Source: Perna viridis
Taxonomy: Eukaryota
Assembly (NCBI GenBank): GCA_037379345.1
Contig: CM074514.1
Coordinates: 7,192,001-7,256,000 of the forward strand
DNA length: 64,000 nucleotides
Direction of reading: 5' to 3'
Below are positions 29,431 through 61,359 of the stretch, one piece after another. A program made the translations under genes and the position numbers. Numbering within the stretch: the first letter of the stretch is position 1; each line of letters opens with the position of its first letter. The notes under the pieces were generated by a model. It saw only the letters and a program-made list of their open reading frames with translations, was not told the DNA's origin and did no database searches.

Positions 29431-29439
29431 TTTTTCTTT

Positions 29440-29800
29440 TTCTTACTCGGTGGCTGATTCTAAATGTTATAGTAGTAATCTGGGTTTAGAGTTCTCTTGT
29501 TAAGCTTCCTTACTATTTTTCTAATAGTTTGTTCTTCGATGTTGAACCTTTCCCAAACCGCTTTTTTATGGATTTTGTCGCTTTTTTCTTTTTTATACGT
29601 TTTTCACACGAGGTTCATTTTTTCCCTTTCCTCCTTATATTCTGATTTTGTCCTTTCTTCTGCAGCAGCCACTGGAGTCACTAAATCTGTATGCAGTTCA
29701 TCATTTTCTTTAATAACATGTGAATTTACGGAAATAAGATAGGATCCTCGGTAACGTCCATTGAGACCACGTCCAATTTGATGCCGTTCATGTTTTTTTC
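29440..29800 (-). pseudogene. Small basic Polinton core-like protein
   Basis: QIGRG...LVTPVAAAEERTKSE followed by a Lys/Arg-rich tail. Confidence 0.45.
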
Positions 29801-30125
29801 TTACATACTGATAAAGACTGTATATTTTTTGCTTTAATTGGTATATAATATGGGTAGTTTTATACTATGTTATTTTGTTCTATATCACTTAGATACACTC
29901 TCCTTAACAAAGACCTCGCACCCTATAAATGTATCCTGGCATATTTCTAAACATACAAATAGTTCACTTTTTGTCATCCCAATCTGTTGTGGTAAATTCC
30001 GTAACAGATACTACCTAATATCCTTCAAATTGTATTTCCTTCTTTTTAATCCTAAAGTCGTCAGGAGTATTATTTAGATAAAAATTATTTCCGTCATCCG
30101 AAGACCAAACCATTCTGAAACTCAT
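29800..30125 (-). pseudogene. Minor capsid (penton) protein, Polinton A
   Basis: MSFRMVWSSDDGNNFYLNNTPDDFRIK...FEGY*VVSVTE then ELFVCLEICQDTFIG. Confidence 0.7.
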
Positions 30126-30149
30126 GTTGTATAATAATGAACATATTAA

Positions 30150-31200
30150 TTGATGTACTCATTATTTTATCAATTTCACCGAATTCTTTGGTACTTACAA
30201 ATTATTTTTTTTTCTGGCCAACCCGTCCATTTTACTGATACTTCCGGTTGTTTTCTATGCAGATGTCTTCTTTTTATAACCTTTTCCACTTTGTATACAA
30301 CGTCATCTGATGTCATGTAACTCATATCTGTAAAATGTTTTTTTGACCAAGAATCTTTCTGTTGATATATGTCTTGATTATCTCTTTTAAATATTTTTCT
30401 TAAAGTATTCCATAGTCCATTTTTCTTGAAATCCCATTTCAAAATTGTGAAATGTGAAATTCTAACAAAATCTTCAATCTTATACTTAAATACAGATTTG
30501 TGTTTCTTTGTTTTGTTGTTGTTTTTTTTCGTATTCAATGACAACTGTTGATTTTTCCTATTCTTCGATCTCTTTTCCCTGACTAAATATTGAATATAAC
30601 GAATTTTGTCTTCATTCTTTTTGTGACGGAAGCCGGTGCGATGTTACCAAATGATTGATGTGCTGTATAGTTATAAATATGAAATGAATCCTGCAGAACA
30701 CTCCAGCGTTATTCGTATAGAATATGTGTATTCTTGATCATATATATTTTCGTTGCTGATTTAAATTCTCCTTCAAATCTGATGCTTTGCGGCTTCCTGT
30801 TATGGTTTTTGAATATGTTTTTAAATGCTTTGGCCACCATTTCACTCTTTTTATTTTTTAATGGGCACACAGTTTCATATCTCGAAAATATGTCAATTAA
30901 ATCTAATAAGAATTTCACTGCGTCGTTGTGTTGTGAAACATTTTCCATCGATGCAAGATCTCCGTCCCACATAGAGTCGTTACCTTCAACTATTACTCTG
31001 CTCCTTTTAAATTTCTTTCTTCTTGATTTGTGTAAACCATAAGTTTTTTTTATATAAAATGTTTAACAAAGCAACGACCAATATTAAACTTTCCTTAACT
31101 ATCTGGTATAATTTGTCAGGACCAGCAAATGTTCCATGATTGCAGGAATTGGTCCGTATTTCTGATAAATATTTTTCTTTGTTTCTTAGATACTCCAGCC
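30150..31200 (-). pseudogene. Retroviral-like integrase with C-terminal chromodomain, Polinton A
   Basis: FAGPDKLY, WDGDLASM...IDIFSRY...PLKNK...KP.SIR..GEF; VYKVEKVIKRR...VKWTGWP. Confidence 0.9.
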
Positions 31201-31515
31201 ATATTTCATTAATAATAATAATAATAATATCATTCATTCAAAGATAGGGTAGTTCAGATATATTTAGTCTACAATTTATAATAACTTTAATAACATTTAC
31301 ATTAATTAATTACTTTCTGATGATCGTTCATTTCAATTATTGTCTCTCAATGAGAGATCGTATCATAATATTAGGTTTATATAGATACCCCTCATTACTA
31401 TATTAGTCCCTCGTTGAGAAAATATGTTGTTATAGTATCTGTTTATGAATTCTCTCATATATTTTTTTGTTTAATTGTCCATCATTTAGAGTTATATAGG
31501 AGTACTTCATTTATG

Positions 31516-31671
31516 GATATCATACCCTCAATAATGTCACATACATCTTATACTACCTCATTGAGGTTTCCTCATTGAAGGGGTATTTTTATAGTCCCTC
31601 ATTGGTGTTTCCTCTTTAAAGTATTGTTTTTATGGCCCCTTGTTGAGGGTGTGTAGTACCCTATATGTAGT
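31516..31671 (-). repeat. Polinton A right TIR
   Basis: Reverse complement of the left TIR, diverged. Confidence 0.9.
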
Positions 31672-33396: not shown

Positions 33397-33526
33397 NNNN
33401 NNNNNNNNNNNNNNNNNNNNNNNNNNNNNNNNNNNNNNNNNNNNNNNNNNNNNNNNNNNNNNNNNNNNNNNNNNNNNNNNNNNNNNNNNNNNNNNNNNNN
33501 NNNNNNNNNNNNNNNNNNNNNNNNNN
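33397..33526. other. Assembly gap (130 N)
   Basis: N run. Confidence 1.
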
Positions 33527-41650: not shown

Positions 41651-42110
41651 GCCTTTCGGTATTTCAGACGTTATTCAACATAACCTTCGAATCATCGATT
41701 GTTGCAATTTTGATTGTCTCCTCTAAATTTGAATTAGGCTTAATGTGAAATAAGCAGGATTGACGAAAAGTAATTGTTCGTATTTTTACAAGATTCTACC
41801 AAGTCATAGCATTTTTAATCAGTGTGTAGCTCTTAGCTGCGTTGATGAATAAAAAAACTGGAGTGAGAACCACGAACACTACCATCCAACTTTCAAGTTC
41901 AGGTATATTAATTTATTACAAAATTTGTCAACATGTTTTCTTGCTTGTCAATATTTATAAGATTTAAATTTAATGTCCTGTATATGAATGATTATATTTC
42001 TTACATTGTGTTAGTACGGTTATGGTTGTTAGAAATGCTTGCTCATACAAACTGTCATCCTCCCAAATCGGGGTTTTGAATCCACCTTCGCTCCCTCAAA
42101 CGTCATCAGT

Positions 42111-42407
42111 GAAGATGTCTTCCAGAAAAAGGTTGAAGAGCAGAGTCAGGAAGCTCTGAAATGGAAGGACTTACCCATCGGGGTAATCTGCAAGATTATG
42201 GAGGTGATAGAGGTGGATGGAAAGTTTGGTAAGTCAAAGATCCTCACCTTGAAGGGCAGACAAGGAGAGAGCACCAAAGTATGGGCTTGCCCTACGCTCA
42301 ACAAAGAAAAAGATCCCTTGCAAGGAGCATACGTTCAGAGCACGGGATTCAAAGTGAGCAAAAAGTCCAAACAGGAATACCTCTCCTACGACCTGGTGAG
42401 GAAGTAA
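42111..42407 (+). CDS. Polinton B small accessory protein (beta-rich, possibly OB-fold)
   Basis: LKWKDLPIG...KFGKSKILTL...KVWA; probable ATG at 42115 is out of frame. Confidence 0.5.
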   Translation, partial: EDVFQKKVEEQSQEALKWKDLPIGVICKIMEVIEVDGKFGKSKILTLKGRQGESTKVWACPTLNKEKDPLQGAYVQSTGFKVSKKSKQEYLSYDLVRK

Positions 42408-42570
42408 AAAATATAACCGAGGGCTAGGGGTATGAGGTTCGAAATTTCCCAATCCAAATTACTGGATGGGGAAATTTTGTTTTTGGTCACATGAGACTTT
42501 GATCTGGAGGATTCTGGAATGAGCGGGGAGCGAGGCGTAGTCGAGCGAGGCGCGTTTGGAAGAATCCTCC

Positions 42571-43071
42571 CTATGGCGCATGCGTAGTAAGGTCTTCACT
42601 AAAAGTGGTGGTGGAAGGTTTTCGCAGCTGCTGCTTTTCGTCGTAGTAGAAGCCAAGACATTTCAAAACCCCTGCAAATTCATATTCACCGTTATCATCA
42701 TCCTCCAGGGCTTTGCTCACTGCATCTTTGATCTTGGATTGGTAGGATCTGACGATACTCACGGTATCTTCATACTTTTTACGCTTTTTGCGGATGCGCT
42801 TGACTAGCATCGTCAATACCACCATCGCAATGGAATTCATGACAGCTAGTGAGCTTAACGAAATGCATGCCACAGCGCCAATCCCCGTGGCGGCGGTGCT
42901 GAGGGTGTCGGTGGTGCAAATGGCGTTGAGTACGGCACATGCACCCAGAGCAAAAGACACCGCTTTATCCACTCGTTCATAGGTTTTTGCTAGTTGGACA
43001 TACTTATGCATTTTGGATTTGAGCTCTCGCTCGATCGATTCAATCCTAGCTTCCCTATAGGATTGCTTCAC
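42571..43071 (-). CDS. Polinton B two-TM membrane protein
   Basis: YR..RI..IE.EL, hydrophobic hairpin, KKRKKY, VSKALED...EF; pattern conserved in beta-type Polintons. Confidence 0.7.
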   Translation of the reverse strand: MKQSYREARIESIERELKSKMHKYVQLAKTYERVDKAVSFALGACAVLNAICTTDTLSTAATGIGAVACISLSSLAVMNSIAMVVLTMLVKRIRKKRKKYEDTVSIVRSYQSKIKDAVSKALEDDDNGEYEFAGVLKCLGFYYDEKQQLRKPSTTTFSEDLTTHAP

Positions 43072-43089
43072 AGAGTCAAGGTTTCACGC

Positions 43090-43410
43090 AGCACACTTTT
43101 CCACCCTTCTTGAGGTACTATCCAGAACCCACAGCCTTTTGGATGGCTGCACTATCCAAACCGCTCAATGTACCCACGCCAAAAGCAGGTAGCTCGGTTT
43201 TGGCTAGCACGGGTAGCGCAGCAGAGGCGAGACCTGCGAGCATGGGGAGGAATCCACCTTCTTTCTGCATGTTATGCCTCACCTGCTTCGGACTTGGAGG
43301 GTTGGGTTGAAGCGAGTCAAGATCTGGCTATCGTTCCCAGAGACGATGAAGGAAAACCCATGCTTGGGTTCGGTATTGGTGATGATTTTCAGCAAAAGTG
43401 AAGCGTCCAT
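43090..43410 (-). pseudogene. Deletion chimera: penton N-terminus joined to an amphipathic core protein
   Basis: MDASLLLKIITNTEPKHGFSFIVSGNDSQILTRFNP then QVRHNMQKEGGFLPMLAGLASAALPVLAK...GSG*YLKKGG. Confidence 0.7.
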
Positions 43411-43424
43411 TTATCTAACCTTAC

Positions 43425-44638
43425 TCAGAAGACGACGCTCATCTTCTGGCCATCTAATTCGAATTGGAGGATTCGATCGGAGATGACCAGGGCGAAGGCT
43501 TGGGTATTGGCAGGGATCTGGATATCCACCGTCGACTCTTTCAACCGCTCGGACTGATGGCTCATGTCAATGACGAATAGGGGATAAAGATCGATGAAGT
43601 CAGAGGGATTGATACCGCCATTGCTCAGCAGACTTTCCATGCTTTAGAATTTTTTGCGGAATTCGGCAGCCTCCTTGTAGACCCTGGCGATGCCGGGGTC
43701 GTTGAGGTGGTCGATCTGCGGAGAGTCGGTAGCTGATGCAACGAAAGAGATACATGGCACCGTTATGGACTAGCGATACAAGATCGACCTCGCCATAAAC
43801 GGTACCATCATTCTTATGAAGTCGGCCTTCATCAAGAGATAGCTTTCGGCGGGATTGAGTCATATACAACGAGTACATGCTAACTGCATTAAAAATTCAT
43901 GTCATATATTAATATTAGGGGGGGGGGGGTGTTACAGATGCAGCCTGTCCTGTGGTATATGTTTGTTTGTTTGTTTGTTGAACTCCGAGCAGCAATATTT
44001 CAGCTATATTCAGACGATGAACATGAAATTGATGATAAAATGAACATGAAATGATGATGAAATGAAAAAGGGATGGGACACAAGGATAATGGGGTCGACA
44101 AATTTTGAGTGCCACTGGAAATAGGGAGGGGTGGGTAGGGTCGGGCAATTTAGCCTCCTGTGGCAGAAGCTATGGTTCCTACTCCGGGAGAATACCACAG
44201 TAGGGTTCTTTAACGTGCGAGGAATGTGGCATCTTTCCCAACACGGTGCACCACTATGGTTTGCGGTCAGGTTTTCCGTATTATAGCCTGACAACCCCAG
44301 CATGTAACACGCCAGGGGTACCCCATTTAACCACCTGGGGCACACATCCCAGTTGCTCTGTGGGCAAAGCGCCCTAACCCCGGCTAGGGTTCTGAGCACT
44401 ATTTATTCGCCTTTATTTACGACAAGCTTAGCGCTGCTGTAGGCCTATTCTTTTAACACCCGGACCTGCACGGGGCTGGATGGAGGAAGAGATCCTGGGT
44501 CTCGATATTGATGCGTATCACTGCGCCGGCATTATTTAGCTGCGCCCCGGCTTGAGGTTCGTATTCATGAACCTGATACTCCTGGAGACTTTCATCAAAA
44601 GTCAGTCCTTCGGTGATAGTGAGCATATCGGCCATCAT
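43425..44638 (-). pseudogene. Major capsid protein, Polinton B (deleted; interrupted by SINE)
   Basis: DESLQEYQVHEYEPQAGAQLN...IRINIETQDLFLHP|AESYL..EGRL.K.DGT and C-terminal LYPLFVID.SHQSERLK...QAFALVISDR. Confidence 0.88.
43960..44474 (-). mobile_element. SINE-like element, copy 2, inserted in the MCP gene
   Basis: Matches 11091-11592 plus ~20 extra internal bp; TSD ggcgggat (43848-43855) / ggctggat (44474-44481). Confidence 0.9.
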
Positions 44639-44649
44639 ATATTTATCTA

Positions 44650-44985
44650 TAGCGCTGGACGAAGTCGTGGATGGTGTGATGCCCCCGCCCGAGATAAGAT
44701 TATTGAGACGGGTCTGCTGCTGCGAAGTCCTCTTGGACTTGGTGGATGGTGCTGGAGGAGTCTTCTTGCGGGTCACTCGACGGACGTTGTGGTCCACCGC
44801 CTTGGTCGCACCTTTCTCAACGCCTTTCAGGGCTGCATTGGAGGCGGCGCTCACAGCTTTGGTACTCAACGTCTTGGCGGTGGAGGAGGTAAGCACCCGC
44901 CCCGCAAGATTGGTGATGGTATCGAAAGGCCTCGCCCGCCAACGGCATACCTTCGGCGATAACCGTGATTCACTACTAAAGGCAT
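44650..44985 (-). pseudogene. Amphipathic basic core protein, Polinton B
   Basis: MPLVVNHGYRRRYAVGGRGL[fs]DTITNLAGRVLTSSTAKTLSTKAVSAASNAALKG. Confidence 0.6.
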
Positions 44986-44996
44986 CGTAAGTTTAT

Positions 44997-45830
44997 TTAG
45001 AGGAGCTTTCGATGCAGCTTCTCGTACTCATGCCTGCTGATATGACCGGACTTCCTCATGACGTCGAGGATGGCCACAATTTCGTTGCGTACCCCATTAT
45101 TTCCAGCCGGGTAGGCGGCAGCGCAAAGATCGAGACGGTCCAGCAATTGGTGGAAGCACGTGGGGAGGAAGACGGTCGATCCTCCACTCCCATACTTATC
45201 CTGCTTATAGAGGTACGAGACGATCTCCTTCCATTTCCTGCTTTTGCTGGCCTTCGGGGTCTGTGAGAGTGAAGAGTTGCCTCGATACATGGCATGGGAT
45301 GCCCGTAGGATATCACCATACGTATGCAGATCCTCCACCTCGAATTCTCCGGGATGCTTTATGACAATGAGCTCCCATTGACCGGGGGTACCCTTATAGC
45401 GCTCGCCATCGACGAAGATATCGTCTCCATCGAAGGTGACTGGCAGACTTCAAATCATAATGGCACCGTCTTCCACTCACAATCCAAAGGTATGGTCGGC
45501 CTGGGGAGTCATACTGAGCTGAAGATAGTGGGTTGCTCGCGGACCGAGGTTGGTTCGCAGTGCTTGATCGATGGGTAGTGGGTCGTCGTCGTCCTCGGCG
45601 GTAGGCACCGGGACGGGTAGAGCGAGTGGGATATCTTCGATCATTTTGGTGATTTGGGAGGCGGTATCCTTTTGCGTCTCAACCACGAGCTTGAATATCT
45701 TGGAGAGGTCGCAGCTGAGTCCGATCCTATCTAGGCGGCGCTGCACATCGCTAGCCTGGATGCTGCGCTTGGTCTCCTGCAAGTCCCTATCAAGCGCTTG
45801 AGCAGATCGTACTCCCCCACCATCCTCACT
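44997..45830 (-). pseudogene. Conserved Polinton hypothetical protein (frameshifted)
   Basis: DLSKIFK.VVETQK...DHTFGL and GSG.TVFLP...LLDRLDL.....AGNNGVRNEIVAILD. Confidence 0.75.
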
Positions 45831-45839
45831 TTTACGCCC

Positions 45840-46177
45840 GACCAGAGGGTGGTGAATTTGGGTATGTATATAGTCTCCTTGTGGATACGGTGCAAAGCTT
45901 TGCCGCGGGCAATCTTAGCACCACACCGGTAGCATGCCTCAGGGAAAAGCTTCGAGTGCCTCTTACATTTATCACTGCCCGATATGGATGGGTACATGCA
46001 CTGATGGCCGCGGACGGTCTTAATGCAGCACTGGGGTCCTGGCGGTTGATTAGGTTTATGGCGGGAGTGGGAATTATAGGTTCTTCCTTCGAAATCCTGC
46101 TCATCGAGGCGCTGAGCGTACCTTTTGACACCGCATCTACTGCAGCCATACCCCAGGATTTCGTAGTGAATAAGCAC
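45840..46177 (-). pseudogene. Cys/His zinc-finger-like accessory ORF
   Basis: CSRC, CCIKTVRGHQC-x9-CKRH and CYRC clusters. Confidence 0.45.
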
Positions 46178-46189
46178 ACGCTCCTACTG

Positions 46190-46479
46190 GTGCTGGCTTG
46201 CTCGAAGAGGCAGATGAAATTACCATTCTCATGGATGGATTGCCGCGGCAGTTTGAAGTAATTTTGGCAGAGGTCCACGTTACTATGGCGACCACACACG
46301 TAGTAGTCTTCGCACTTGTTCTGCTCGCTTAGCATCAAGTCGTCGAAGACCATGAGGTTTTTGCGGGTGGGGTCGAGCTCTCGAGGATCGGGCACGTCAC
46401 TCATCTGTCCGAAGAAGAAAGGTTCGATACCGCTGGAAGGGTGGCTTCATCACATCCACTACGTCGACTAAAGAGTGGG
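46190..46479 (-). pseudogene. Packaging ATPase, Polinton B, C-terminal part (continues at 53380-53477)
   Basis: VPDPRELDPTRKNLMVFDDL (Walker B), GRHSNVD, QNYFKLPRQSI.EN. Confidence 0.9.
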
Positions 46480-47028
46480 TGTTTAGAAGACAATTATATT
46501 TTTTGACTTCAATTTTCATATGTTTTTAGATAACGTTTTTTTTTAATTAGTTTTATTTCTTTTCACTTTTAATTTTCATTGATAATTTTACATAGAAATC
46601 GAATTGTAACCTTGATCTAGTTAAGATAAGATAGTCGTTGTTTGTCTGGTCATCCAGTACTTGGAACTAATTAATTATTTTGATAGCGGTCAGCTGTTTA
46701 ACATATTTAATGATCTGTATCAGACAGACAATGAGAAGGTAAAAGTTCAAATTGGTAATTTGGGGAGTTACATTTAGGTTAATTGGGTTTATTTGTTCAG
46801 ATTCGGCACATAATTATGGTCAGTTAGAAGTCAGAGTTCGATCGGTAAACATTGTATTCAAATATGTGAATGTATATATTATGTAAATAAACGTAGGATT
46901 AGAAAGATCGTTTTTAATCGAAATCATGGTCGTAGACAAAAGTTATAGTGCTCGTCGTCTAGCTTCCCAATTACATAATTGAACAAACAATCGTTAAATC
47001 GCTTCCACTGCGCAATCACTCTGCTCCA
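46480..47028 (+). repeat. 5' LTR
   Basis: Direct repeat of 52831-53379; 5 mismatches seen by eye. Confidence 0.97.
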
Positions 47029-47033
47029 TTTTC

Positions 47034-47051
47034 TGGTAGCAGAGCGTGGTT
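47034..47051 (+). promoter_or_regulatory. Primer binding site for initiator tRNA-Met (TGGTAGCAGAGCGTGGTT)
   Basis: Complementary to the 3' end of metazoan tRNA-iMet (...CTCTGCTACCA). Confidence 0.9.
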
Positions 47052-47141
47052 AATATGGACAAAACGGACTTATCGAAATCGTATCGAAATTATAATTCAT
47101 AATCGGAATTAATATTGACATTTAGTGATCGTTAATCGAAA

Positions 47142-50100
47142 ATGAGCAATTGGGAGCTAGATCTTAGAAACGAAAAAATGGAAGAGACAATGATCGACTA
47201 ACAAAACGAAAAAATCGAGGATATTAAAAAGGACAAGGCAAAAGCTAAATCGGCCTTCACAAAATTGAGATATAACCTTCTCCAGTTAATCGATGAACCG
47301 GGCGAAATTCCAGATCGTGATATCATCAAAGAAATAAGACAAAAACTAACAGATGCAGAAGAAAATGCTATGAACATTATGCAATTATTATATGACGAAT
47401 ATAAGAAGAGAAACGAAATATTAAATGTACGGAAAACAGCTAATGAACTAGAACAAATGGAATCAGAATTTTCTGAAGCGATAAATGAATGTCAAAACTT
47501 TTTGATAAGTACAAAAGACAGTTCTAGTGTTCCATCGCGTGCATCGAACTATAGAGAAGAAATAGATAGACAAAATGTTCCAGTTACCGACGATAGTGGC
47601 GATAGACGTGAAATTAAAGATGACATTGGACAATTACCAGATCGGATTAATCGTGACATACCAGTTGAAGTTCAAAGTGACAATCGTATCGAAATCGGAA
47701 ATGACATGTGGAAGCAGTTGAAACGAATTGCGATTCCAATATTTTCGGGTGACAAACGAAGTTATGAAGCATGGAGGGCCGCCTTCATGTCGTGTGTGGA
47801 CAAAGCGCCGGCTACACCTGAATATAAACTTTTACAGTTAAGACAATACTTATCAGGAGAAGCATTAAAAGTGGTTGAAAATCTTGGATATTCGGAATCA
47901 GCGTACGTGGCTGCAAAAGACAGATTGGAGCGTAAATATGGAGGTAAACGACGACAGATCGCACGTTATATAGAAGAGTTAGAAACTTTCAAACCAATTC
48001 GAGTGGGAAATTCAAGAGACATTGACAAATTCGCAGATTTAATTGACGTAACTGTTGTGAATCTAAGGGATGCCGGTCGTAGTGAAGAACTTGGTAATGG
48101 ATCGTTATACAATAAATTACAGCAAAAGTTACCCGAGTCTATGCTTGCGCAGTACCATAGATGGGTATTCGAGAAACGGAGACCGGAATCAGTCGAATCG
48201 TTAAGGGAGTGGATAATTCAGGAAGCGGAATTCCAAACTATCGCGAGCGAAACTATCCGAGGATTAGACAACTTGTACAACAATGACGTCAGGCGTCCGA
48301 GACCGGGTACAAACAGAACTTTCGTCAGTAACACTGAAAACACAGATAGAAATGCTCGTAGACGACTATGTAAAGTATGTAATGAGCCGCATGGTGTGTG
48401 GAACTGCGAAATGTTCAAAAGAATGGATTTGCAAAAAAGGTGGAATGTTGCAAAGGAGCATAAACTTTGCTATCGTTGTTTAGGAGATAATCACCTCGGA
48501 CAAAGGTGTCCAAGAAGTAGAACGTGTGGAATCGATGGTTGTAGGGAGCTTCATAATAGAATGTTACATTATGAAAGGATTAACAATTTTAATCAACGCA
48601 GGCGAGTGGACAGTAACAATGTGCACAGACATTCAGAAATATTCAAAAGTGTTACAGAGCCGAACACTGAAGGGGAGCGTCAAAACAGAACGATGATCGC
48701 TAAAGACCGAGAAAAGGTAAATAATGTAATTTTAAGAACTGTACCAGTAATTGTCAGAAGTGGTAATCGAAAGTTGAAAGTGAACGCACTACTCGATGAT
48801 GCTAGTACAAAGACTTATATTAATTCGGATGTAGCCGCAGAGTTAGGTCTCCATGGACAGTTACAAACTATGACAGTAAATGTTTTAAATGATGAATGTG
48901 AATCGTTTGAAACAATGCCAGTTGAATTCGAAATTGAAAGTGTGAATGGCAGAACAAGAAATCGAATCGTAGCTTTCACGACAAACAAGGTGACCGGGAA
49001 TATGAAACCCATAGATTGGCGACAGCACAGTTCTAAGTGGGAACATTTGAAAGGCATACAGTTTCCGGACATAGGTTCGAAGCCTAAAGTTGATATGTTA
49101 ATTGGTTTGGATTATGCCGATTTACATTATTCGTACAAGGATATTCGTGGTAAACCAGGCGAGCCGATAGCAAGATTAACTCCCCTTGGATGGACATGTA
49201 TTGGGAATCCAGACACTGATGACAATCTGACACATTAAAATTACACATACTTCGTCGGAAGTATCAATGAATCAAATGAATACGATTTATTGTTAAAGAA
49301 ATTCTGGGACATTGGACACGTCAAACCTATCGATAAGAATGAGATGTTAAGTGCCGAAGATAAACAAGCTGTCAAAATCGTTGAACAATCAATGTGTTTC
49401 AAAGATGGTCGCTATGAAGTAGCCTTGCCTTGGAAGAGTGACCCTGCTAATTTACCGGACAATTATAATATGGCTTATCGCAGACTTGAGAATACTGAGA
49501 AGAGGTTAATTAAGGATGCGACTGTGAAGAACGATTACGTTAAAACTATTGAAAAGTATCTTGACAAAGGTTACGTCCGTAAAGTGCCAGCTGAAGAAGA
49601 GGTGCCGAAATCGGGAAAATGGTATTTACCGCACTTTCCAGTTGTAAGACCAGACAAGGAAACTACAAAGACAAGGATCGTATTCGACGCGTCTGCAAAG
49701 TGTGAAAATGCATCGTTAAATAGTGTCATTCATCAAGGTCTAAAATTACAGAGGGATTTATTTGGTGTTCTATTGCGATTTAGAAAGAATCCAGTTGCGT
49801 TAGTTTGTGATATTGCTGAAATGTATCTGAGGATAAATATAGCTCCGGTTGATAGGCCATTTCACAGGTTTTTGTGGCGCTCAATGGAATTAAATCGAGA
49901 ACCGGATGAATATGAATTCAATAGTGTTGTCTTCGGAGTTAATTCTTCGCCATTTCAGGCCCAATATGTTGTGCAGAAGCATGCTGAGTGCATGAAAGCG
50001 TCGCATCCGCGAGCTGCGGAAACAGTACTTCATTCGACTTACATGGATGATAGCATGGATTCAGTAATGAATGAACATGAGGGAATATTATTGTATAATC

Positions 50101-52655
50101 AATTGTCTGATTTATGGTGGAAAGCTGGAATGTACGCACGCAAATGGTTATCAAATTCAGAGGCAGTGTTAGATTTTATTCCGAAGGAAGATCGCGCGTC
50201 CGACGTTAATCTTGATGATGGTAGTTTGCCTACTGTGAAAACCTTGGGAATTATGTGGAAAGCGAATGTAGATTTATTCACATTCAAAGCGAATCCTCCA
50301 GGCGAGGACTTTGTGTACAGAAAGCGAAATTTCTTGAGAAAAGTGGCTATGTTATTCGATCCTCTTGGATTTATTTCGCCGTATATAGTGAGAGCTAAAA
50401 TGTTGCTTCAAGAAATGTGGTTAACTGGATATAATTGGGATAATTTACTAGATGAAAATTTAATATGTAAAGCAAAATCTTGGTTTAAAGAGCTAAATGA
50501 TTTGAATCAAATCAAAGTTCAAAGGTGTTTACAAGTTGTGGATCAAAATGAGGAAATTATTCATACTAATATTCATACATTCGTTGATTCGTCTGAAGAA
50601 GGATATGGTGCCGTTTCGTATATGAGAATCGAGTATATGAGTGGATTAATTTCGACAAGGATTATTGCATCGAAATCGAAAGTTGCACCAATTATTGCAG
50701 TTAGTATTCCGAGATTAGAGTTGATGGCTGCTGTTTTAGGATTAAAACTTGCACTTTCCATGGCGGAGCCGCTTAGAATACCGACGGAACAACTTGTGTT
50801 TTGGTCAGATTCTATGGATGTTTTATGGTGGATACGTGGTCGAAGCAGAGACTTCAAGCCGTTTATCGCGAACCGCATTGGAGAGATACACATGGCTTCG
50901 AGTCCAACACAGTGGCGCTACGTACCAACGAAAGAAAACCCCGCGGATCTGGTATCGAGAGGCAGGACTGTTATTCAGCTGAAATCGGACATTATATGGT
51001 GGGAAGGTCCAGACTTTCTATCAAAACAAGAATGTGACTGGCCTGAATGTCGTATTAACAAAGGACTATCGTGCGACAAAGAAGTTAAAAGCGCTAAATC
51101 GGGTGCTAAATTAGAGACTGTCAAGGACAGTGAAATATTTACAATGAAAATTGTGTTTGTATCGGAGAAGGATTGGTGTTTAAATCCAGAACATTATTCG
51201 AGCTGGTTGAGACTCATTCGTGTTCGTTCATGGGTTAACAGATTCGTTGAAAATTGTAGACTTACGCGTGACTTGCGTAGAAAAGGTGGACTTAGTGTAG
51301 ATGAAATTGAAGAGGCAGATACTCAAATCGTGCGCGACGCGCAGAGATGTGAATTTCTAGAGGATTATAATTCAATTATGAAAGAAAAACAGTTACCGTC
51401 GGGCAGTAAACTTCTAAGTTTAAAACCGAAAATCGATGAATATGGACTACTTAGATGTGACGGGCGTCTTGAACATGCAGATTTCTTGCCGTATGACACT
51501 AGGTATCCTATAATACTTCCGAGGAAAAATCGCGTGACAAGACTAATCGTGAAATACTACCACGACAAAGGTAGACATGTGTGCGGGACAAATCAAATAT
51601 TATCCATGATGTCATCTAAATATTGGATTATATCCGCCAGAGAGGAAATACGTGAGTGTGAAAATGAGTGTTATACGTGTCGTAAGAGAAAGGCGAAAAC
51701 AGCAGAGCAAGTAATGGCTCCTTTACCGGACATTCGTTTCAGAACGCCATTACATGCATTTGCGCGTATCGCAGTGGACTATGGTGGTCCGTTTATAACA
51801 GTGCAAGGTCGAGGAAAGAGACGTGAAAAGAGATATTTGTGTTTATTTACGTGCTTGGCATCGAGAGCCGTGCACTTGGAAGTTGCTTTTGGACTAGATA
51901 CTGACTCTTTTCTTAATGCGTTTTATAGAATGGCCAGTAGACGTGGAATGCCACAAGAAGTTGTTTCGGACAATGGAACAAACTTTATCGGTGCAAACAA
52001 GGAATTACAGGAACTAGTTTCACTATTAGATAAAGACAAAATATGTGACAATACGTCGAATAGAGGTGTGAAGTGGCATTTCAATCCTCCTCTCGCGCCT
52101 CACTTTGGAGGCGTACATGAAACGATGATAAAAGCCGCAAAGAACGCAATTTATTCCATATTAGGAAATGCGGACATTACTGACGAAGAGTTGTTAACTG
52201 CATTTATCGGTGCCGAAGCAGTCATTAATTCGCGTCCGCTTACATACCAGTCGGCAGATTCCAGAGATGACTTACCGTTAACGCCTAACCATTTCCTACA
52301 TGGACAAATCGGAGGAGCGTTTGCACCAGAGACCGTTGATACAACTGACTTTAACCCACGTAAACGATGGCGTCGAATCCAGGAATTAGTTAGACATTTC
52401 TGGCAAAGATGGATTAAAGAGTGGCTACCAGTACTAAATAGAAGACATAAATGGACTGAAACTGAAAAGGACTTGAAACCCAATGACATTGTGCTTGTAA
52501 TGAATCCCAATCTTCCACGAGGACATTGGCCGTTAGGCAGAATCATCGAGGTGTACTCAGGAAAGGACAATCATGTTCGAGTCGCCAAAATTAGACTTGG
52601 ACAAACTGTTTTAGTACGACCAATTACCAAACTGTGCCCGTTGGAAGTTAATTGA
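47142..52655 (+). pseudogene. BEL gag-pol polyprotein, single frame with two in-frame TAA stops (47199, 49236)
   Basis: Three Cys/His knuckles; protease ALLDDAS; RT YMDD; RNase H FVDSS/IPRLEL; integrase HHCC, VDYGGP, SDNGTNF, GGVHE; all segments in the same frame. Confidence 0.96.
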
Positions 52656-52817
52656 CTTAAATTTAACGTGCAATAACTATCAAGAAGCAGTGACTTTAAT
52701 TTTCTCCGTTTACATGGACTATCGCTATAGTTATGAATTATAGACTATCGAATATTTTCATTTATTTCGTTTTATTTTTTTATTTTTTTTGTTGTTGTTG
52801 ATTGGCTATGCTCAATC

Positions 52818-52830
52818 AAGAAGGGGAGAA
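52818..52830 (+). promoter_or_regulatory. Polypurine tract aagaaggggagaa
   Basis: Abuts the 3' LTR. Confidence 0.9.
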
Positions 52831-53379
52831 TGTTTAGAAGACAATTATATTTTTTGACTTCAATTTTCATATGTTTTTAGATAACGTTTTTTTTTAATTA
52901 GTTTTATTTCTTTTCACTTTTAATTTTCATTGATAATTTTACATAGAAATCGAATTGTAACCTTAATCTAGTTAATATAAGATAGTCGTTGTTTGTCTGG
53001 TCATCCAGTACTTGGAACTAATTAATTATTTTGATAGCGGTCAGCTGTTTAACATATTTAATGATCTGTATCAGACAGACAATGAGAATGTAAAAGTTCA
53101 AATTGGTAATTTGGGGAGTTACATTTAGGTTAATTGGGTTTATTTGTTCAGATTCGGCACATAATTATGGTCAGTTAGAAGTCAGAGTTCGATCGGTAAA
53201 CATTATATTCAAATATGTGAATGTATATATTATGTAAATAAACGTAGGATTAGAAAGATCGTTTTTAATCGAAATCATGGTCGTAGACAAAAGTTATAGT
53301 GGTCGTCGTCTAGCTTCCCAATTACATAATTGAACAAACAATCGTTAAATCGCTTCCACTGCGCAATCACTCTGCTCCA
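52831..53379 (+). repeat. 3' LTR
   Basis: Direct repeat of the 5' LTR. Confidence 0.97.
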
Positions 53380-53477
53380 GTGGGGATAGCGATCCTTGAT
53401 GGAGAGAAGGTCGCGGATATCGTCTTTCGAAAACCCTTTCTCCAACGCCCGCCGCAGTAGCTGGTAGATGGGCTGCT

Positions 53478-54494
53478 GACGGTACCCCGAAATCTTGGTC
53501 GAGACCTGTCAATCGAGTCGATGAGGCTGCCTATCACCACGATCTTTGCTATGCCAAGCACAGGGATACGGCCGATCTGCGATAAGACGATGCTAGCCTC
53601 CCTCGATACCATCCCCAATCCCACTGCACGTGAGCGCTTTGAGCGTGGTATCAGACCCATCATCGGTACCAAAGCACGATTTGGGCTGGGTGGGGGGAAA
53701 AAAGTACGATGGTCGGATGAGCTAGCCGAAGAGCTGCATAAGCCAGTCCGACGTAAATTTCAGAAACGTCGCGTGGTGGTAGGTGGGGTGGATTACACCT
53801 GGGCTGCCGATCCCTTAGATATGAGCTCCTTCTCCCGCGATAACCGAGGCTTCAAGTATCTCTTGAATTTTATAATCGTGAGGTGAAGGATCTGCTCCTG
53901 AAGCACGATGTCGACCTCTATTCAACCGAGAACGAAGAGAAGTCAAGCCTGGTAGAGCGCTGGAATCGCACCATGAAGGAGAGGATGTTCAAGTACTTCT
54001 CGGCCAATTTCACGCGCACCTATCATCCCGTCCTGAACGATCTCGTCCGCCAGTATAATACCACCAAGCATCGATCTATCAAGATGACCCCTAAGGCTGC
54101 CAGCCAGAAAGAGCATGAGACCAAGGTCTTCTGGAATCTTTACTGAGACCTCCCACCCATGCAGCCGCAGCGATTCGACGTGGGCGATAAGGTCCGGATC
54201 ACCAGGAAGAAGGACACCTTCGAGAAGGGATATACTCCGCGCTGAACTGAGGTCTTTACCATCGCCCAGGCCTTGAGTACTCAACCGCCCACCTATCGTC
54301 TCAAAGACTATGAGGATGAGGAATTCCTGGGATCCTTTTAGGAGCCCGAGCTCCAGCGCACTGACCAGGATATCTATCGCATCGAGAAAGTCTTGCGCCG
54401 GCGGACCCGGGGAGGGGTGAAGGAAATCTACGTCAAGTGGAGAGGCTACCCCAAAGAATTCAACTCCTGGATCAAGGAGTCAGACTTGCAATGA
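53478..54494 (+). pseudogene. PLA2 domain joined to integrase and chromodomain, Polinton B
   Basis: PVNRVDEAAYHHDLCY (parvovirus-type PLA2); KARFGLG; ELAEELHKP; TWAAD; VERWNRTMK; IYRIEKVL...YVKWRGYP..FNSWI. Confidence 0.92.
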
Positions 54495-54499
54495 TCCCA

Positions 54500-55001
54500 A
54501 GCAAGCTTTCAGGTCTCGATCAAGGGAGACCGGAAAGTTTTTGACTATGTATGCTTCAGTTCGACAAAGACCCTTAATGCGTCCAGATCCGCCAGCAGGC
54601 GATCGTAAAGGGCTTTGGTGATAGGTTCGTTGTCGATCTGGGGAAGTGGGAGATTTAGCAGGTGATACTTTTGCATGTCTAGGTCCGCATTCACCTTGTC
54701 ACCGATGGTCGAGACGCAATCTGACTTATCGACTCATCTTCTACGGCGATTAGCTTTTCGGTAAGGTCTTTGATCGATACGTCATACTCCCTCTGCATCC
54801 GCTTGATGGTCATCTGGATCTGCTTACATTCCGAATCTAGCTCGTCGATGTCTTTCATACCATCTTTCAACTGTTGGTTGACCCATCGCTTTGTCACGGC
54901 GTCTGAGCTGTCTCGGGGCAAACCGAGGCTGGTGATCCGATTATCGTTCATATCGTGATCCTGAAGCATTCGCCAGATTCGTGAGATCCAAACTTATGCA
55001 T
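54500..55001 (-). pseudogene. Fibre/spike-like protein remnant with coiled coil
   Basis: Two copies of the DM...I..L..P....D/EA.TK motif: DMNDNRITSLGLPRDSSDAVTK and DMQKYHLLNLPLPQIDNEPITK. Confidence 0.55.
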
Positions 55002-55392
55002 TTATCTATATCCGAAGATCACCTCCTCGAGCTTCTGACCTTCCGATAGGAGCTTCAGTACGTGCAAGCAAAAGTGCCCGCAGACTACGTCTCCTCGCCG
55101 CTGCAGCTCATCGGTATTATATCGAATCTCCGGCCGCAGATAGTTGACCATCTCATCGGGTGGGAGTAGGCCGTAAGGGTCGAAGTAGACTGAGTCCTCC
55201 ACGCTTATGCCAGCACGTCCAGTGCGTGGCGGGGCCATCGCGTACTCGGTGGGTTGGGGTCGGGTGGTAGAGCATCGCGCATGAATACTCCTCTGAATCG
55301 AGGGATGCGTAGGGCCGTGGCAGCTTCCTCGAGCTCTACGTTGGAGAAGGGCTTGTGGTGAGGAGGATGCCGTGCACGCGTATGCTGCTCAT
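55002..55392 (-). pseudogene. Adenain-like protease, Polinton B
   Basis: PFSNVEL...FRGVFMRD.LP, THWTCW, YFDPYG, LQ....VCGHFCL. Confidence 0.9.
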
Positions 55393-55470
55393 TTATCTAG
55401 GGAGGGATGGGCATCTACACCCGTCAGAGTCTACTAAATGTAGGAGAAGAGAGATGGGCATCCGCACCAG

Positions 55471-57700
55471 TCAGAGTCTGTCAAGTGGAGGGAGGGGGGG
55501 AGGGGTGAGGGCGACCACCTCAGCCGTGGGTGATTCGGTAGTGTCCGTGGCGAGGGTGCTGATGCCGTCTGGGTGGATGTGGCGCTTATCGTACTTGGCC
55601 GAGAGATCTACATGTATCTTGTTGTTCTGCTCGGCGTAGATCTGGTGGGATAACATTCATCGGTCGGTGGATCTCCTGCTGGGTGTCGAGGCATCGTTTG
55701 TAGTCCTCGAAGGCGATGCTGCGCTTGATGACGCTCTTGGTGACGCCCTTCGCCTTCTTGTTGGATTTACCGTCGTCCATCTTGAAGGCGTATAGCTTCA
55801 CTCGGAGCCCCATGAATTCGGTCATGGCCTTGCCGCCGCATTCGTCCTTGAACATTCCGCTGATCTTCTTATTCACGCCGGGGGATGCTCCGTCGGGTAG
55901 TTGGATGTATCGAATTTTTCCTGAACGTGTGGCGCGATATCATGTCAGTGTTGGTGAAAAGCAGGCGGGCTTTGTTGCCGTACGTCTTCTTCACGAAATC
56001 GTAGTGGAAGTCGTACTTCAGGAGCTTCGAAATATCCAAGATGCACGATCCAGGTAGACGGGCTTATCGAACTTCAGCTTGGTCTTCTTCATATGGACGG
56101 CTGCCAGATTCTCGGTGAAGATTACTTGAGATTTCGATAGTGGAGAGCATATTTTTCACGCTTGTCTAGATGAGGTACGAGCTTGCGCACCTTGCTGATC
56201 TCCACGTTCTCGGGCGCGAGAGGGTAGTCATTATGGGCGTCGTGAAGATCCTGCGGGTATTGAGGACGCATTCTACCATGGCGCCATGTTCGTGGTCGTC
56301 GGGATACTTAAGAATCTCGTCGACCTCCTCCGGCTCCATCCACTCGAAATCTCCCGCGGGAAGGGGCTGCGCCATCGCCCAACCGTAGAGGTTGTTGGCA
56401 TAGAGATAGGTGAGATATTTGGTGGGCTGGGAGCTAACGTAGTCGGCCATGTAGGGATTGGTAGCCTTGCCGTGGCCTCCTCTGGTTGCCCTCTCGAACA
56501 CCATCAGCATATCCGGATCGGAGAGCAGCTCCAATCTGACCCCGGTGGTTTTGAGGGCGGCGTCGTAGGCTAGCCCGGGGAACGTGAAGATGTGGGCAGG
56601 ATCGAGCATTCCCAAACCGCCTTGAATTTATCGGGCGTAAGATTCTTGGCTAGATTTTCCAGCGAGTTGGGCACGAATTTGCACAAGTGCTTCGGAAGCT
56701 GGAAGCCGCGATATTTCCCGGTGACATGGTAGTGATCCCGTACCTTATCCCATCCCAATTTATCCCCGCAAATGTAGCAGTTCGAGCTTGATGTGAAGCT
56801 ATGCTTATCCTCGTCGCTCATCACCATCGGCTTCTTCTCCTAGCATATCTTGCTGATCGTCTGCACTTCCTTCTCCATGTATTGGACGAACTGTTTTGGC
56901 CGCATCCTCCCCGCAGTAGACGACCGATTCCTTGTATTCGCCGTGGGCATACATCACGCGATAGCAGAAACCTGATGTCCGTTGCCGTCGGTAGGCCTTC
57001 GTGTAGGACTTGGTTGGGTCGGGCTGGCAAGTGTCGAGCTTCTCCGTGAAGCATTCAAAGTCCGCATAGATTACGAATGGGACTCTCATCAGCTTCTTGT
57101 GATTATGGAAGGTTATGATGGATCCTTCTTCCGGCATCTCGATCCTGATGGCATCCTTCTGACTGCAATATTCCATATGCTCGTCCAGGATATCCTGCCT
57201 GGAAAAGTGGCGCAAGCATCTACGGCAGATGCCTCTCGAATTTATCGATTGCTTTGAGGGAGACCGGGATTGATGCCTTTGAATTTTAGCTCGTCCTCCC
57301 ATTTCGCGTATTGGTTCGCCCGGTTGGTATTCTTCTGATCCACCTCCTCGTGATGCAGGGCTGAGAGAATCGCCCACTGGAAGCTGTGATCGTCCTCTTT
57401 TTCCACATTGATGATCGTCTTCTTTTTCGCAAGTGCTGATGGGGTTGGTATGAAGGAACCCCCCTTGAGTGGCTTGAATTGGTCGAGATGGATTTCTAGC
57501 TTATCGATGCTGCTTTAAGTCCATCCACTCCCTTCGTCCATATAACTAGCCATACTTTCCCTGATCTTCCCCATCATGGAGACGATCTCCAATTCGAGGT
57601 TGTCAGATTCCACGATCATTGTCGTTCGTGATCTGAAGGGAGTGGTGATGTAGATATTCTCTCCGGTCACGAAGGAGCACTAAATGCACCTTTAAACCCT
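55471..57700 (-). pseudogene. Protein-primed PolB, Polinton B (with EndoVII-like insert)
   Basis: EGSGW, FQWAILSALH, FVIYADFE (exoI), CYIC...VRDH.H.TGKYRG, YLYANNLYGWAM (motif A), LFTNTD, GMFKDE, DKR...DGI.TLA. Confidence 0.92.
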
Positions 57701-60214
57701 TCTTTCGGGTGAGAGCATCTGAGATGGCGGTGGAGATGGTGCTCGACTTACCTTGAGAAACTTGTGCCTTTATTATTTATCCACCCTCTCGCAAATATTA
57801 TATTTGGTGCATTATTGCAGGCTATCAAGTTTGACACCACCCACCCACTGATTCAAACAAAAAAAAATCAAGTGATTGGTTACAAACTTTTTTATTGTTT
57901 GGACTTATATGATATTTTATAGGTACCTTGACTCCATTTCTAACATTCGCCTGTTTTCTCCGATTCCATCCCCTTAATCGAAAACAGTATGGACAACTTG
58001 AATGGTAGACTATCATCGTCGTCAAATGGAAAGCGATACAATATCATTAACTCACTTAGACACTTCGGCATTTCTGGAGAACCAGAATTGACACGAAAGT
58101 AATTTCGGTAAAGTTTGTTCGCAGTGTAGTCTATTGTTACTACTGTAATGTTTGCATCTTTCATCCTCGTTCTGAATCAATCGAGCGATACAGTACCTGG
58201 GTTGAATGAGGTTCGGGATCTGAATACGATAAATACCCCTGTCAAATAAGTAATCTTTTAACTCCGTTGAAGTAAGATTAATTATGTTATAAAATTCATT
58301 AGAATCAATTATTTTGTTATGAAAAAACAATATTCATCGGGATACCAGAGGACAGGCTATTACACTGGTTCCTGTATACTGAAGATCTTTCGTTTACTTC
58401 GAAAACTGGGGTCCTGCATCTTTTATTGTTCCATTTACACATTTCTCATTTACAATATTATTTATATAACCTTTTGGACATACTGAAATACATGTAGATT
58501 GTAATTGATGGCTTTGTGATACCGATATATCTGTATACTGTTTCAGTTTTCTTGGAGACATTGTAGTTTTGACAGCAGTCTTTTACTCCTCACAAAGTTC
58601 TTCACAATAACAGTACCGAAATGGCTTGTTGGAGCAACTATCATGTACAATACGTAGGTCGTCTTGAAGTATGTTGGGTCTATCAGTCGTTTTGAAAATA
58701 TTCGTTTCTGTAGATATTTCTGGGTGTTGTTTTTCCGCGGATAAAATAATTTGGCTCGTTATTTTCATTTGGTCCTCTCTCTGTCTTTTCCTGGTCGGTT
58801 GGTTGTAGTTTAATTCCTGATGCTCTCTTACTCACTATTCTCCTTGAAAATCCTTTGCAATTATTCAGTTTGTTATGTCTCATAACAACCGTCCCAACAA
58901 CACTGTTGTAATCTTATGACTGCATTGCAAGAAATTGAAGGAAACGATACAAAAAACTTAAACAAGTAACTGAACCCTCATTTCTAAAGTCTTTTTTAAG
59001 TGTCTGAGGTAACAGTGACTTAGAGTCAGGTCCTTCAGATTAAATAAAATGCGAACTTGATCAGCAAACAAACATTATAACTATGTCTCGCTACAAGAAA
59101 AAAAATCCCACTTTTTTCAGTTTAAGACTATTTCGACGCTGTTTTGTCACCTCGAACGAAACTGATAGAAAGACAATAACGCTCTTTGACATTTGGCAAT
59201 GGAGTTACTCACAGATCAATAGCCGAGCATTGTACCTATGGAATGGACGAATGTGTGTATTACTCCAGGTGTCATTTCCATGTAGTAAATCCTGTAATAA
59301 TAAATTACATTGTATTTGCAATGGAACACCAGTAGTCTGTAGAGGTTGTGTTACCCACCTAAGACAAATAAGGTAGCGCTCGTATTAAATTTACTCTTTA
59401 CTTGTTGATATTCCACCTCCATTCCACTTTTAAATAGCCGCTTTATTTTCATACGCAGAATATATAAAAAAAAACTAATTGAGCGTGAAAACTAAGTCAT
59501 TTTTGTGTATTGCATCGACGTTGCGTACGTTTCGTACATTGTTAGTGTCACATTCGATTGAACCGGAGCTTGTTACGCAAACTGATATATTGCTATTAGA
59601 ATGTGGATTTATCAAAGGCAATATAGATATTAAAATGTTCGAAAATGGTTGTTGTTTTAGATCTTTGAAAGATGCCGTTAATTATAGAGGGAAAGCATTA
59701 TTCGATCACAAGAACGTCCAGTTCGATTTTTTTTATCATGTTGACAATATTCTCTATGATTATTTTATTCCAATGTAAAGTCAGATAAATGTTAAATTAC
59801 TCGACAAATGTTAAGTCCTGCATCTGTGCTTGGAGAATGATTAAAAGTAACACGCTCGTCGCAACCAGACAGTTAAGTTATGGATTTCCTGTATAGCATC
59901 ATATAATTGATAAATCTCATCAATATTGTCATATGAATTGAATAGAACCATACATTTATTACTTTACTTCCTATCTACAGAGATTTGATATGGAATAACA
60001 GTAGCATATGTACAAGAATAAAACAAAAACAATTGAAACGAAAAAAAATAACCTACACATACTATATGTTTTCCATACCAAAGTGCACAATTTCTTAATA
60101 ATCAAATATAATGTGGGTTTATCCATATATCTCAAAATGTATGTGGATATTTATTTTGGTGTTCGGCGTAGGTCCACCTGTATGGCAAGCCAAAGTGGAC
60201 AAAAAGCCCTATTT

Positions 60215-60550
60215 CTTTATATCAAAAAATGATTTTTCTAATATTAAAAAATAATTTTTAATATCAAAAATTCATTTCTTAAAATTTGAAAAATAAATTT
60301 ATAATATTAAAAAAATAAAAGAATGATTTTTTTTTATATCAGAAATTGATTTTTTAATATAAGAAATGAATTTTTGATATTACAAAATCAATTTCTAATA
60401 TTTAAAAATCAGTTTCTAATATTAGAAAATCATTATTTAATATATATGTAAATAAATTCTTCTATCAATTTTAGTATTAAAAAACTATATTTTAATATTA
60501 AAAATCCAATTTTTAATATTGAAAATGAATTTTTAATATTGAAAATTAAA
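60215..60550. repeat. AT-rich ~21-bp tandem array (aaaatgatttttctaatatta-like)
   Basis: Directly visible degenerate repetition. Confidence 0.75.
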
Positions 60551-61359
60551 ACTTTGTTATTAGTTTGACGCGTGTAAACATTTTCAATATTTAAAAAAAT
60601 CGAATAATTGTACAATGACTTGGTGAATATTAATAGGATAATTACTTGGAAAGAGTGAATAACCAAAATATTATTACGTGTGTCGAAGAACGCCTAAATT
60701 TAACGGGTGCGCGGAACTTACGAGTGAAATCCTCAAAAGCATTCTTGGCGCGAGTGATCATACCGTAAATCATACATTGTGTATTTTTATTTATCATTAT
60801 TTTTTTTTTATTTTATAAGTTCCACCGTAATTGTCACTTCAGTCCTAGCTTCAATGTCCACATCGTTTGTGCAATACGAAAAAACAACCTATACTCTGGG
60901 CAGGGAGTGTATATAAAGTCCCTGACTCAGGGTCACCTTAAACCAGAGATTAAATAAAACTGATGTTTTAATGTTTTATTAGTCCCAGCTTAAATCGTGA
61001 CATTGAGATATTTTTGAGATAACAACAAAAGAAAAAAAGACTGACCTTACGCAAATATAATGCATATTCTCCAAATCAGGGCAGATGCAAAGTGACTTGA
61101 TGAGCATTTGTTTTAAACAAATGGATTTTAACAAATACATATGTTATATTTAAAAAAAAGAATAAAAAACAATAACGCCTCCTCCCTTAGAAGTCGGATT
61201 TTAAATAAACTGAGCCACAAGATCCTAAATATAAATAAATATAAATGAAATAAAACAAGTTATATTTAGAGTCGGCATGAAACATAAGCTCTTTTGAACT
61301 AGTCTAATCCCGGAAATTCCAACACTCATTTTCCTACATCGATTTTCTAAATTTCCATC

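Follow-up and report, generated by a model that had tools for sequence, protein, structure and literature searches.

How do the Polintons of animals have their genes transcribed, and might a larger virus supply the polymerase? The question is raised by a decayed beta Polinton in a 64,000-nucleotide stretch of the Perna viridis genome (GenBank assembly GCA_037379345.1, contig CM074514.1, positions 7,192,001 to 7,256,000; hereafter the window, in whose coordinates all positions are given). The element spans roughly 42.0–57.9 kb, and a short word, TAGATAAAT(G), recurs on its minus strand at the starts of its virion genes. A preliminary description of the locus proposed that this word is a dedicated late promoter or initiator, possibly read by a helper large DNA virus, or else a stop-restart signal. 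Here we find the motif to be real and linked to gene starts; it is probably a transcription initiator, and its reading by a helper is plausible. At stake is how animal Polintons express their genes and, with that, if they live as autonomous viruses of the nucleus or as parasites of larger ones.

All of the sites reported in that description are present, each on the minus strand. TAGATAAATG sits on three start codons, namely those of the protease gene (55390–55399, ATG at 55392, 121 nt past the pPolB stop), the fibre-like gene (54999–55008, ATG at 55001, overlapping the protease 3' end) and the penton gene (43408–43417, ATG at 43410, 8 nt past the stop of the major capsid protein, MCP). TAGATAAAT also covers the end of the core gene, its last codons and its stop, at 44641–44649, where 11 nt separate the start of the motif from the MCP ATG at 44638. 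A weaker copy, TAAATAAAC, lies at 44991–44999, 14 nt from the core ATG at 44985; it overlaps the stop of a 290-aa-type gene and contains a canonical AATAAA. Homology supports these five ATGs as starts. The first 11 residues of the protease agree with homologue P0039, which marks ATG 55392 as the true start, while the core, MCP and penton starts are supported by homologues P0258 and P0001 and by the penton of a related element, L001, respectively. For the fibre-like gene, the N-terminus MHKFG resembles MSVHKFG in L001 and MSVNKFG in another relative, L005. Only the core gene, the fifth of these verified starts, has TAAATAAA instead of TAGATAAAT.

The distance from motif to ATG is 7, 7, 7 and 11 nt (14 nt for the weak copy). 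The distance to the upstream stop, in contrast, runs from −6, −6 and +8 to +121 nt (−2 for the weak copy), with no fixed register between stop and start. Because the spacing to the ATG is nearly constant and that to the stop is variable, the motif is tied to the start and not to the stop. Near-copies at 57783, 57248 and 45975 fall within reading frames and were rejected as starts. The starts left out of our counts are those whose 5' ends are lost or uncertain (pPolB, ATPase, the phospholipase A2 (PLA2)-integrase gene, 290-aa, pX-like, two-transmembrane (2TM) and single-stranded DNA-binding protein (SSB)-like). As every non-virion start is among these, specificity of the motif for virion genes cannot be demonstrated within the window.

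The number of copies by itself proves little. Counted over the whole window, matches with at most one mismatch number 10, with 10.0 expected, which is no enrichment and carries no information, and some 9-mer reaches four copies in 42–65% of 200 Markov simulations per order; it is position that carries the case. TAGATAAA occurs within 15 nt upstream of four of the five verified starts and of none of the 309 other ATGs in the element (p = 1.3 × 10⁻⁸), and the looser pattern TA[AG]ATAAA precedes all five verified starts and again none of the 309. When sets of five ATG contexts were drawn at random, an 8-mer common to at least four of them was found in 0 of 200,000 draws. Within the 8,478 nt of Polinton sequence, four copies of TAGATAAAT are seen where 0.03–0.07 are expected (0/400 simulations per order).

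Relatives of the element were taken from one scan of genome contigs, which yielded six loci (L001–L006). L004, whose MCP is that of L003, received no separate count, L006 is listed only, and L005, of alpha type, serves as a contrast. Starts were excluded for the integrases of L001 and L003 and the protease of L003 (the homologous frame of each lacks its own ATG), for shadow open reading frames (ORFs) on the opposite strand, and for a reverse transcriptase-like insert in L001. All six loci lie in bacterial metagenome-assembled genomes of GTDB, two of them with terminal inverted repeats, and are most likely contamination of eukaryotic or viral origin.

Every start counted in L003 (13/13, compared to 3.0 in shuffles), the four divergent ones among them, has TAAA running directly into the ATG. 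ATAAA(A)TG, which forms the core of the window motif, is found at 10 of these 13 starts compared to 12 of 535 other ATGs. L001 shows the same junction less often, with TAAA into the ATG at 5/12 starts (1.4 in shuffles); an A run precedes the ATG at 10 of the 12. Furthermore, a TAAAA-type box, reading TATAAAAA or CATAAAAA, begins between −30 and −25 at 10/12 L001 starts (0.9 in shuffles), and the segment from −29 to −16 is AT-rich at 9/12 starts in L001 and 12/13 in L003. The check suggested in the preliminary description, a search for the motif upstream of beta Polinton ORFs, thus gave a divided answer: the exact word precedes none of the 28 starts in L001–L003, while an equivalent signal stands before nearly all genes. 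That description had held that lack of conservation in related elements would refute its reading, and by this measure the result speaks against the exact word as one shared across the family. The claim of an initiator is nevertheless supported by the fixed position on the ATG and by the equivalent signals of the relatives, which also occur at divergent gene pairs. A dedicated late or virion-gene signal was not borne out: in L003 the ATPase, SSB-like and pPolB genes have the start signal before them as well, and in the window the 5' ends of the pPolB, ATPase, PLA2-integrase, pX-like and 2TM genes are lost.

The alpha-type element differs. TCAKT is the arthropod initiator of RNA polymerase II (Pol II), and in L005, the single alpha-type element sampled, it lies within 27 nt of the ATG at 6/12 starts (2863, 3471, 6422, 7426, 11676 and 12778, often as TAGTCATTTG) compared to 18 of 433 other ATGs. 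It precedes 1 of 30 starts in beta elements.

Closer homologues offer an indirect view through their protein ends. Among 20 core homologues, the five closest end in YR, 12 in YK, one in DK, one is extended and one is a fragment. The YR and YK ends are compatible with TA[G/A]ATAA at the same place, and with the weak variant in the window. Similarly, 7 of 10 close proteases stop at the residue before the motif and the other 3 continue to a final K.

Gene ends carry a candidate second signal, one that escaped the preliminary description. The two strongest hairpins in the window element fall exactly at its two convergent junctions: one of 11 bp between the integrase and fibre-like 3' ends (54506–54537, followed by a T run on the plus strand) and one of 14 bp between the SSB-like and 2TM genes (42442–42477, z about −3.6). 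Across the window, L001 and L003, stems of at least 10 bp occur at 12 of 37 gene ends (10 distinct of 35), compared to 0/75 coding windows and 6/275 host non-coding windows (p = 5 × 10⁻⁷). At the seven ends that are not followed by a start on the same strand (four convergent ends in the window, three in relatives), none of AATAAA, ATTAAA or GATAAA was found.

How might such signals work together? It is common knowledge that internal initiation is rare for eukaryotic ribosomes, so each tightly packed gene would need a 5' end of its own. Given a word fixed to the ATG, and a counterpart at the divergent starts of relatives, an initiator is the simplest reading, and from the sequence we judge it probable that the motif is a transcription-start element. 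TAGATAAAT(G), which in four virion genes sits on the start codon or immediately ahead of it, would then be the point at which the RNA of each gene begins. The RNA may start in the AAA run, with a leader that could come from polymerase slippage, as in poxviruses and the yeast linear plasmids, and neighbouring genes of this compact lineage would give nested RNAs that share their ends at hairpins. The polymerase may be supplied by a co-infecting nucleocytoplasmic virus. We infer a helper polymerase because no RNA polymerase subunit was seen among the scanned ORFs of the element and its relatives. That a helper-virus polymerase reads the motif is our tentative preference, held at somewhat less than an even chance, and the same caution applies to the full proposal, in which the motif is an initiator and its reader the RNA polymerase of a helper large DNA virus, not host Pol II. 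The idea was already in the preliminary description; the 3' hairpins and the pox-like two-part layout of the relatives now lend it backing.

The resemblance to a poxvirus late promoter, also proposed there, stands in part. TAAAT(G) is present, but the AT-rich core, which in poxviruses lies about one helical turn upstream, is absent from all five window starts, whose mean AT content in that segment is 0.43 compared to 0.49 for the element. Because the window lineage lacks this core, we do not file its motif as a poxvirus-type late promoter and would see in it a variant of a single element, suited to some other polymerase.

Several observations weigh against an initiator read by a helper, or against the generality of the signals on which it rests. 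The patterns in L001 and L003 were defined post hoc, after inspection of the sequences, and the relatives, whose MCPs are 27–58% identical to the window fragments, represent three independent beta lineages at most. In addition to being absent before the 28 starts, the exact word arises inside the L003/L004 protease frame through codon chance. The missing AT-rich core, a requirement of post-replicative promoters in poxviruses, belongs here as well. A runs before the ATG are the usual invertebrate translation context. The core and protease ends amount to indirect conservation in a close clade, which ordinary protein conservation would also give, and 96 protease C-termini, mostly from distant homologues, share no common signature. 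With regard to hairpins, most gene ends have no stem of at least 10 bp, the five motif-bearing junctions in the window have none of 10 bp (9 bp at two of them), and none of nine window ends reaches z ≤ −2 in 90-nt windows. A(A/T)TAAA lies near 8 of 15 gene ends in L003, which is AT-rich, and several of these are the start signal of the next gene. Finally, hallmark genes of coral polintoviruses are expressed in ordinary RNA-seq (PMC11131425).

This last point leads to the main rival, a core promoter for host Pol II whose leader is very short. In it the TA would be the dinucleotide at which transcription starts, the A run would give the favoured context for translation, and the TATAAAA near −27 of the relatives would be an ordinary TATA box. 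We regard it as unlikely, yet it is the best of the alternatives. Polintons integrate in the nucleus, and expression of the coral elements is seen with no helper known (PMC11131425). The L001 boxes are TATA-like, an A-rich context is what an invertebrate start would have anyway, and the TCAKT excess in L005 indicates that short-leader promoters resembling those of Pol II do exist in Polintons. The difficulty lies in the geometry. With a spacing of 25–30 nt from TATA box to start (PMC5294985), Pol II starting from the L001 box, which keeps a constant distance of about 27 nt to the ATG, would begin on or next to the ATG and leave almost no leader. In the window genes such a box is missing altogether; TAGATAAA itself was considered as a TATA box and rejected, as a start 25–30 nt downstream would skip the conserved N-termini. 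Furthermore, a canonical poly(A) signal is missing at 7/7 informative ends, yet hairpins stand at many. If host Pol II does read the motif, it would still be an unusual, nearly leaderless promoter.

More doubtful is a translation signal on a polycistronic RNA, in which a stop, an A-rich context and a start within ten bases would permit stop-restart or ribosome re-entry. The word does contain TAG and TAA, two copies overlap the end of the upstream gene, all five copies are at tandem junctions that lack both an AT core and a long hairpin, and 7/10 close proteases and 17/20 core proteins end at this spot. However, the stop-restart alternative of the preliminary description is disfavoured by the distances given above, which follow the ATG and not the stop; two exact copies overlap no stop at all (8 and 121 nt downstream of one), and all four divergent L003 starts have an equivalent signal with no upstream ORF on their strand.

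The motif could instead be the poly(A) signal of the upstream gene (GATAAA or AATAAA), abutting the next start by compaction. All five copies are indeed at 3' ends of same-strand genes, and AATAAA is contained in the weak copy as well as in the YK variant that is predicted. That four of the five are the non-canonical GATAAA, that the spacing is fixed relative to the ATG, and that the hexamer is found at 0/4 convergent window ends and 0/3 such ends in relatives, make this improbable.

We consider it very unlikely that the word (TAG|ATAAATG) is an acceptor for splicing or trans-splicing by which each late gene would receive a common leader, in the manner of the adenovirus major late unit. A YAG does lie 4 nt upstream of the ATG, and the protease copy is preceded by a pyrimidine tract (0.71) and CTGAC, but this tract is found at one of the four copies only, the other three having ordinary pyrimidine content (0.41–0.59, background 0.51). 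All four copies have a competing AG within 17 nt, 12 of 20 core homologues (those ending in YK) do not imply the G, and relatives have no AG there. Chance together with codon constraints at gene junctions, for which the flat whole-window count, the ready appearance of repeated 9-mers in simulations and the word in the L003/L004 protease frame could speak, is close to negligible in view of the positional p of 1 × 10⁻⁸, the 0/200,000 look-elsewhere draws and the two copies that are non-coding.

The element that carries the motif is decayed, its genes frameshifted, truncated or both, and it stands out by a GC content of 51% compared to about 33% in its flanks. Broken remnants of the beta Polinton/adintovirus gene set are present: integrase, double jelly-roll capsid, penton, ATPase, protease, GasderminX/pX-like and cupiennin-like genes. 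A PLA2-like gene is also present, one typical of alpha modules in Starrett et al. 2021 (PMC8502044). From the right, the minus strand carries a broken beta-type pPolB with an endonuclease VII insert (55520–57870, 5' end lost at the host junction), the broken adenain-like protease gene (55002–55392) and the broken fibre-like or coiled-coil gene (54545–55001), a label weakly supported by a Pfam match to T7 tail fibre (E = 0.049); its Atlas neighbours are unnamed. The pPolB pieces match the pPolB of L003/L004, which has the same insert, and not the PF03175-type enzyme of L005; PF03175 gave no hit to the window pPolB. In the spacer between pPolB and protease (55405–55500) is a short direct duplication, ACTCTGAC...GATGCCCATC, with pyrimidine tracts. 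The 3' part of the PLA2-like gene, its 5' end deleted, and the broken integrase follow on the plus strand (53461–54494).

Next to them, and outside the motif system, a BEL/Pao long terminal repeat (LTR) retrotransposon is inserted in the ATPase gene on the plus strand (46480–53379). It is young, with 549-nt LTRs that are 99% identical, a 5-bp target duplication, a primer-binding site and long gag and pol ORFs, and it accounts for 6.9 kb of the 12-kb motif span given in the preliminary description. Continuing on the minus strand are the remnant of the A32-type packaging ATPase (46123–46475, start lost), the broken conserved Polinton gene of about 290 aa (44997–45823, start uncertain), the broken basic core (cupiennin-like) gene (44643–44985) and the double jelly-roll MCP remnant (43425–44638). 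An Atlas search of 45832–46182 gave no usable match. The MCP has an internal deletion and is split by a repeat resembling a short interspersed nuclear element (SINE) at 43960–44477; the closest named MCPs are from Mytilus, at 80–89% over the surviving pieces. Among the named relatives are XP_063447224.1, XP_063419674.1 and XP_071137296.1. This SINE-like repeat, about 500 nt long with a (CAAA)n tail, has a second copy at 11097–11593 (88% identical) and matched neither Rfam nor a tRNA; Rfam had no match anywhere in 40–60 kb, and tRNA genes were absent. The penton 5' end is fused through a deletion to part of a pX/GasderminX-like gene (43082–43410, minus), followed by the 2TM gene (42571–43080, minus, 5' end deleted) and, on the plus strand, a gene without a family hit that we take to be SSB-like (42033–42407, start uncertain, TAGAAATG near the start). 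No inverted match was found between the two ends of the element, which are truncated, and neither terminal inverted repeats nor a target-site duplication was seen. Searches with tblastn returned nothing, neither with a pPolB piece against phages nor with an MCP homologue against phages and plasmids.

The relatives show further peculiarities of gene arrangement. The integrase frame lacks its own ATG and shares an overlap with the end of the PLA2-like gene (L003:9165–9210; L004:8820–8865; L001:3230–3330, minus; window 53690–53720). In L003 and L004 the overlap holds a slippery A AAA AAC in the correct codon phase with a strong hairpin (z −4.1) downstream of it, which together form a candidate site for −1 ribosomal frameshifting that would yield a PLA2-integrase fusion; the overlap in L001 has a different offset and no hairpin. 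The protease frame likewise begins without an ATG, directly after the pX-like gene (L003:3916–4030; L004:3565–3680), and may form a fusion. Elsewhere in the window there is a second, older decayed Polinton at 20286–31660, with terminal inverted repeats (20286–20427 and 31516–31660), alpha-type pPolB pieces (23967–25784), an integrase, and MCP-, protease- and ATPase-like frames; TAGATAAAT(G) is absent from it. Host tandem repeats with units of 47, 34 and 21 nt lie at 7178–8030, 2170–2339 and 60215–60561, and a run of 130 N at 33397–33526.

As the window copy is dead, interest lies in the family and not in the locus. Helper dependence has been shown for virophages and some protist Polinton-like viruses (PLVs) and suggested for entomopoxvirus-associated elements, and a start motif combined with hairpins at gene ends makes the question testable in animals, with a short word that can be used to look for the helper. 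A broader possibility, which we think rather doubtful, is that the beta Polintons of animals are virophages. Their genes would carry initiator and hairpin signals addressed to a large DNA virus's RNA polymerase, adapted in each lineage to the helper concerned, and alpha Polintons would rely on the Pol II initiators of the host. If this were true, TAGATAAAT(G) would identify, as a promoter fingerprint, a large DNA virus as yet unknown that infects marine invertebrates, likely bivalves, and could help to find it. Promoters and start motifs are not described in Barth et al. 2024, where the word 'promoter' occurs 0 times, or in Starrett et al. 2021, where a single 'TATA' hit is unrelated, and the supplements on nematode and vertebrate Polintons contain neither ATAAATG nor 'promoter'. 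More widely, no description of the start or end signals of animal Polintons was found in full-text searches of the literature (including PMC8502044, PMC11296320, PMC8097293, PMC11131425, PMC10748475 and a 2026 preprint; subscription journals and some supplements lay outside this search).

Among known systems, the element has the gene set and beta-type pPolB of the beta adintoviruses/Polintons (Starrett et al. 2021). A functional parallel would be with virophages, which have a late promoter and a hairpin rule in common with their helpers; transcripts of Mimiviridae, Iridoviridae and pithoviruses likewise end at hairpins (PMC11814242, and, for virophages and iridoviruses, PMC8547959, PMC6510173, bioRxiv 2022.07.28.501842 and bioRxiv 2025.10.09.676808). 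Promoters read by a helper are known for virophages, PLVs and transpovirons (PMC11788076). The cases compared were mavirus/EMALE, which share TCTA with CroV, Sputnik and Guarani, which share both the late promoter and the hairpin rule of Mimivirus, and Gezel-14T/PgVV, which share an early motif with PgV. Like these, the beta Polintons are small integrating or parasitic dsDNA elements without an RNA polymerase of their own, with one short motif, specific to the lineage, ahead of many genes, those for replication among them; hairpins are enriched at gene ends, although most ends lack one. Unlike them, they have an animal host and a different word, and no helper virus is known with which a shared motif could be demonstrated. 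That animal PLVs can accompany a poxvirus is shown by the entomopoxvirus-associated elements (Barth et al. 2024).

A likeness to the poxvirus intermediate/late promoter lies in TAAAT(G) overlapping the start codon; TAAA(T) lies at the start codon or overlaps it at 4/5 starts in the window, 13/13 in L003 and 5/12 in L001. The vaccinia intermediate promoter has a core at −26 to −13, a 12-bp spacer and TAAA at −1 to +3 (PMC12917281), a spacing matched by the two-part layout of L003 and L001. The window differs in its GC-average upstream segment (0/5 cores) and an additional conserved TAGA, and L001 in often having CAAA in place of TAAA. TAAAT or TAAAN initiators with slippage leaders, together with stem-loop ends, are found both in poxviruses and in the pGKL plasmids (PMC6211774). 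The pGKL yeast linear plasmids are similar in being protein-primed linear DNA with a TAAAN initiator and stem-loop 3' ends near stop codons; unlike a beta Polinton, they encode their own polymerase and capping enzyme, possess an upstream conserved sequence, and have neither capsid nor integrase.

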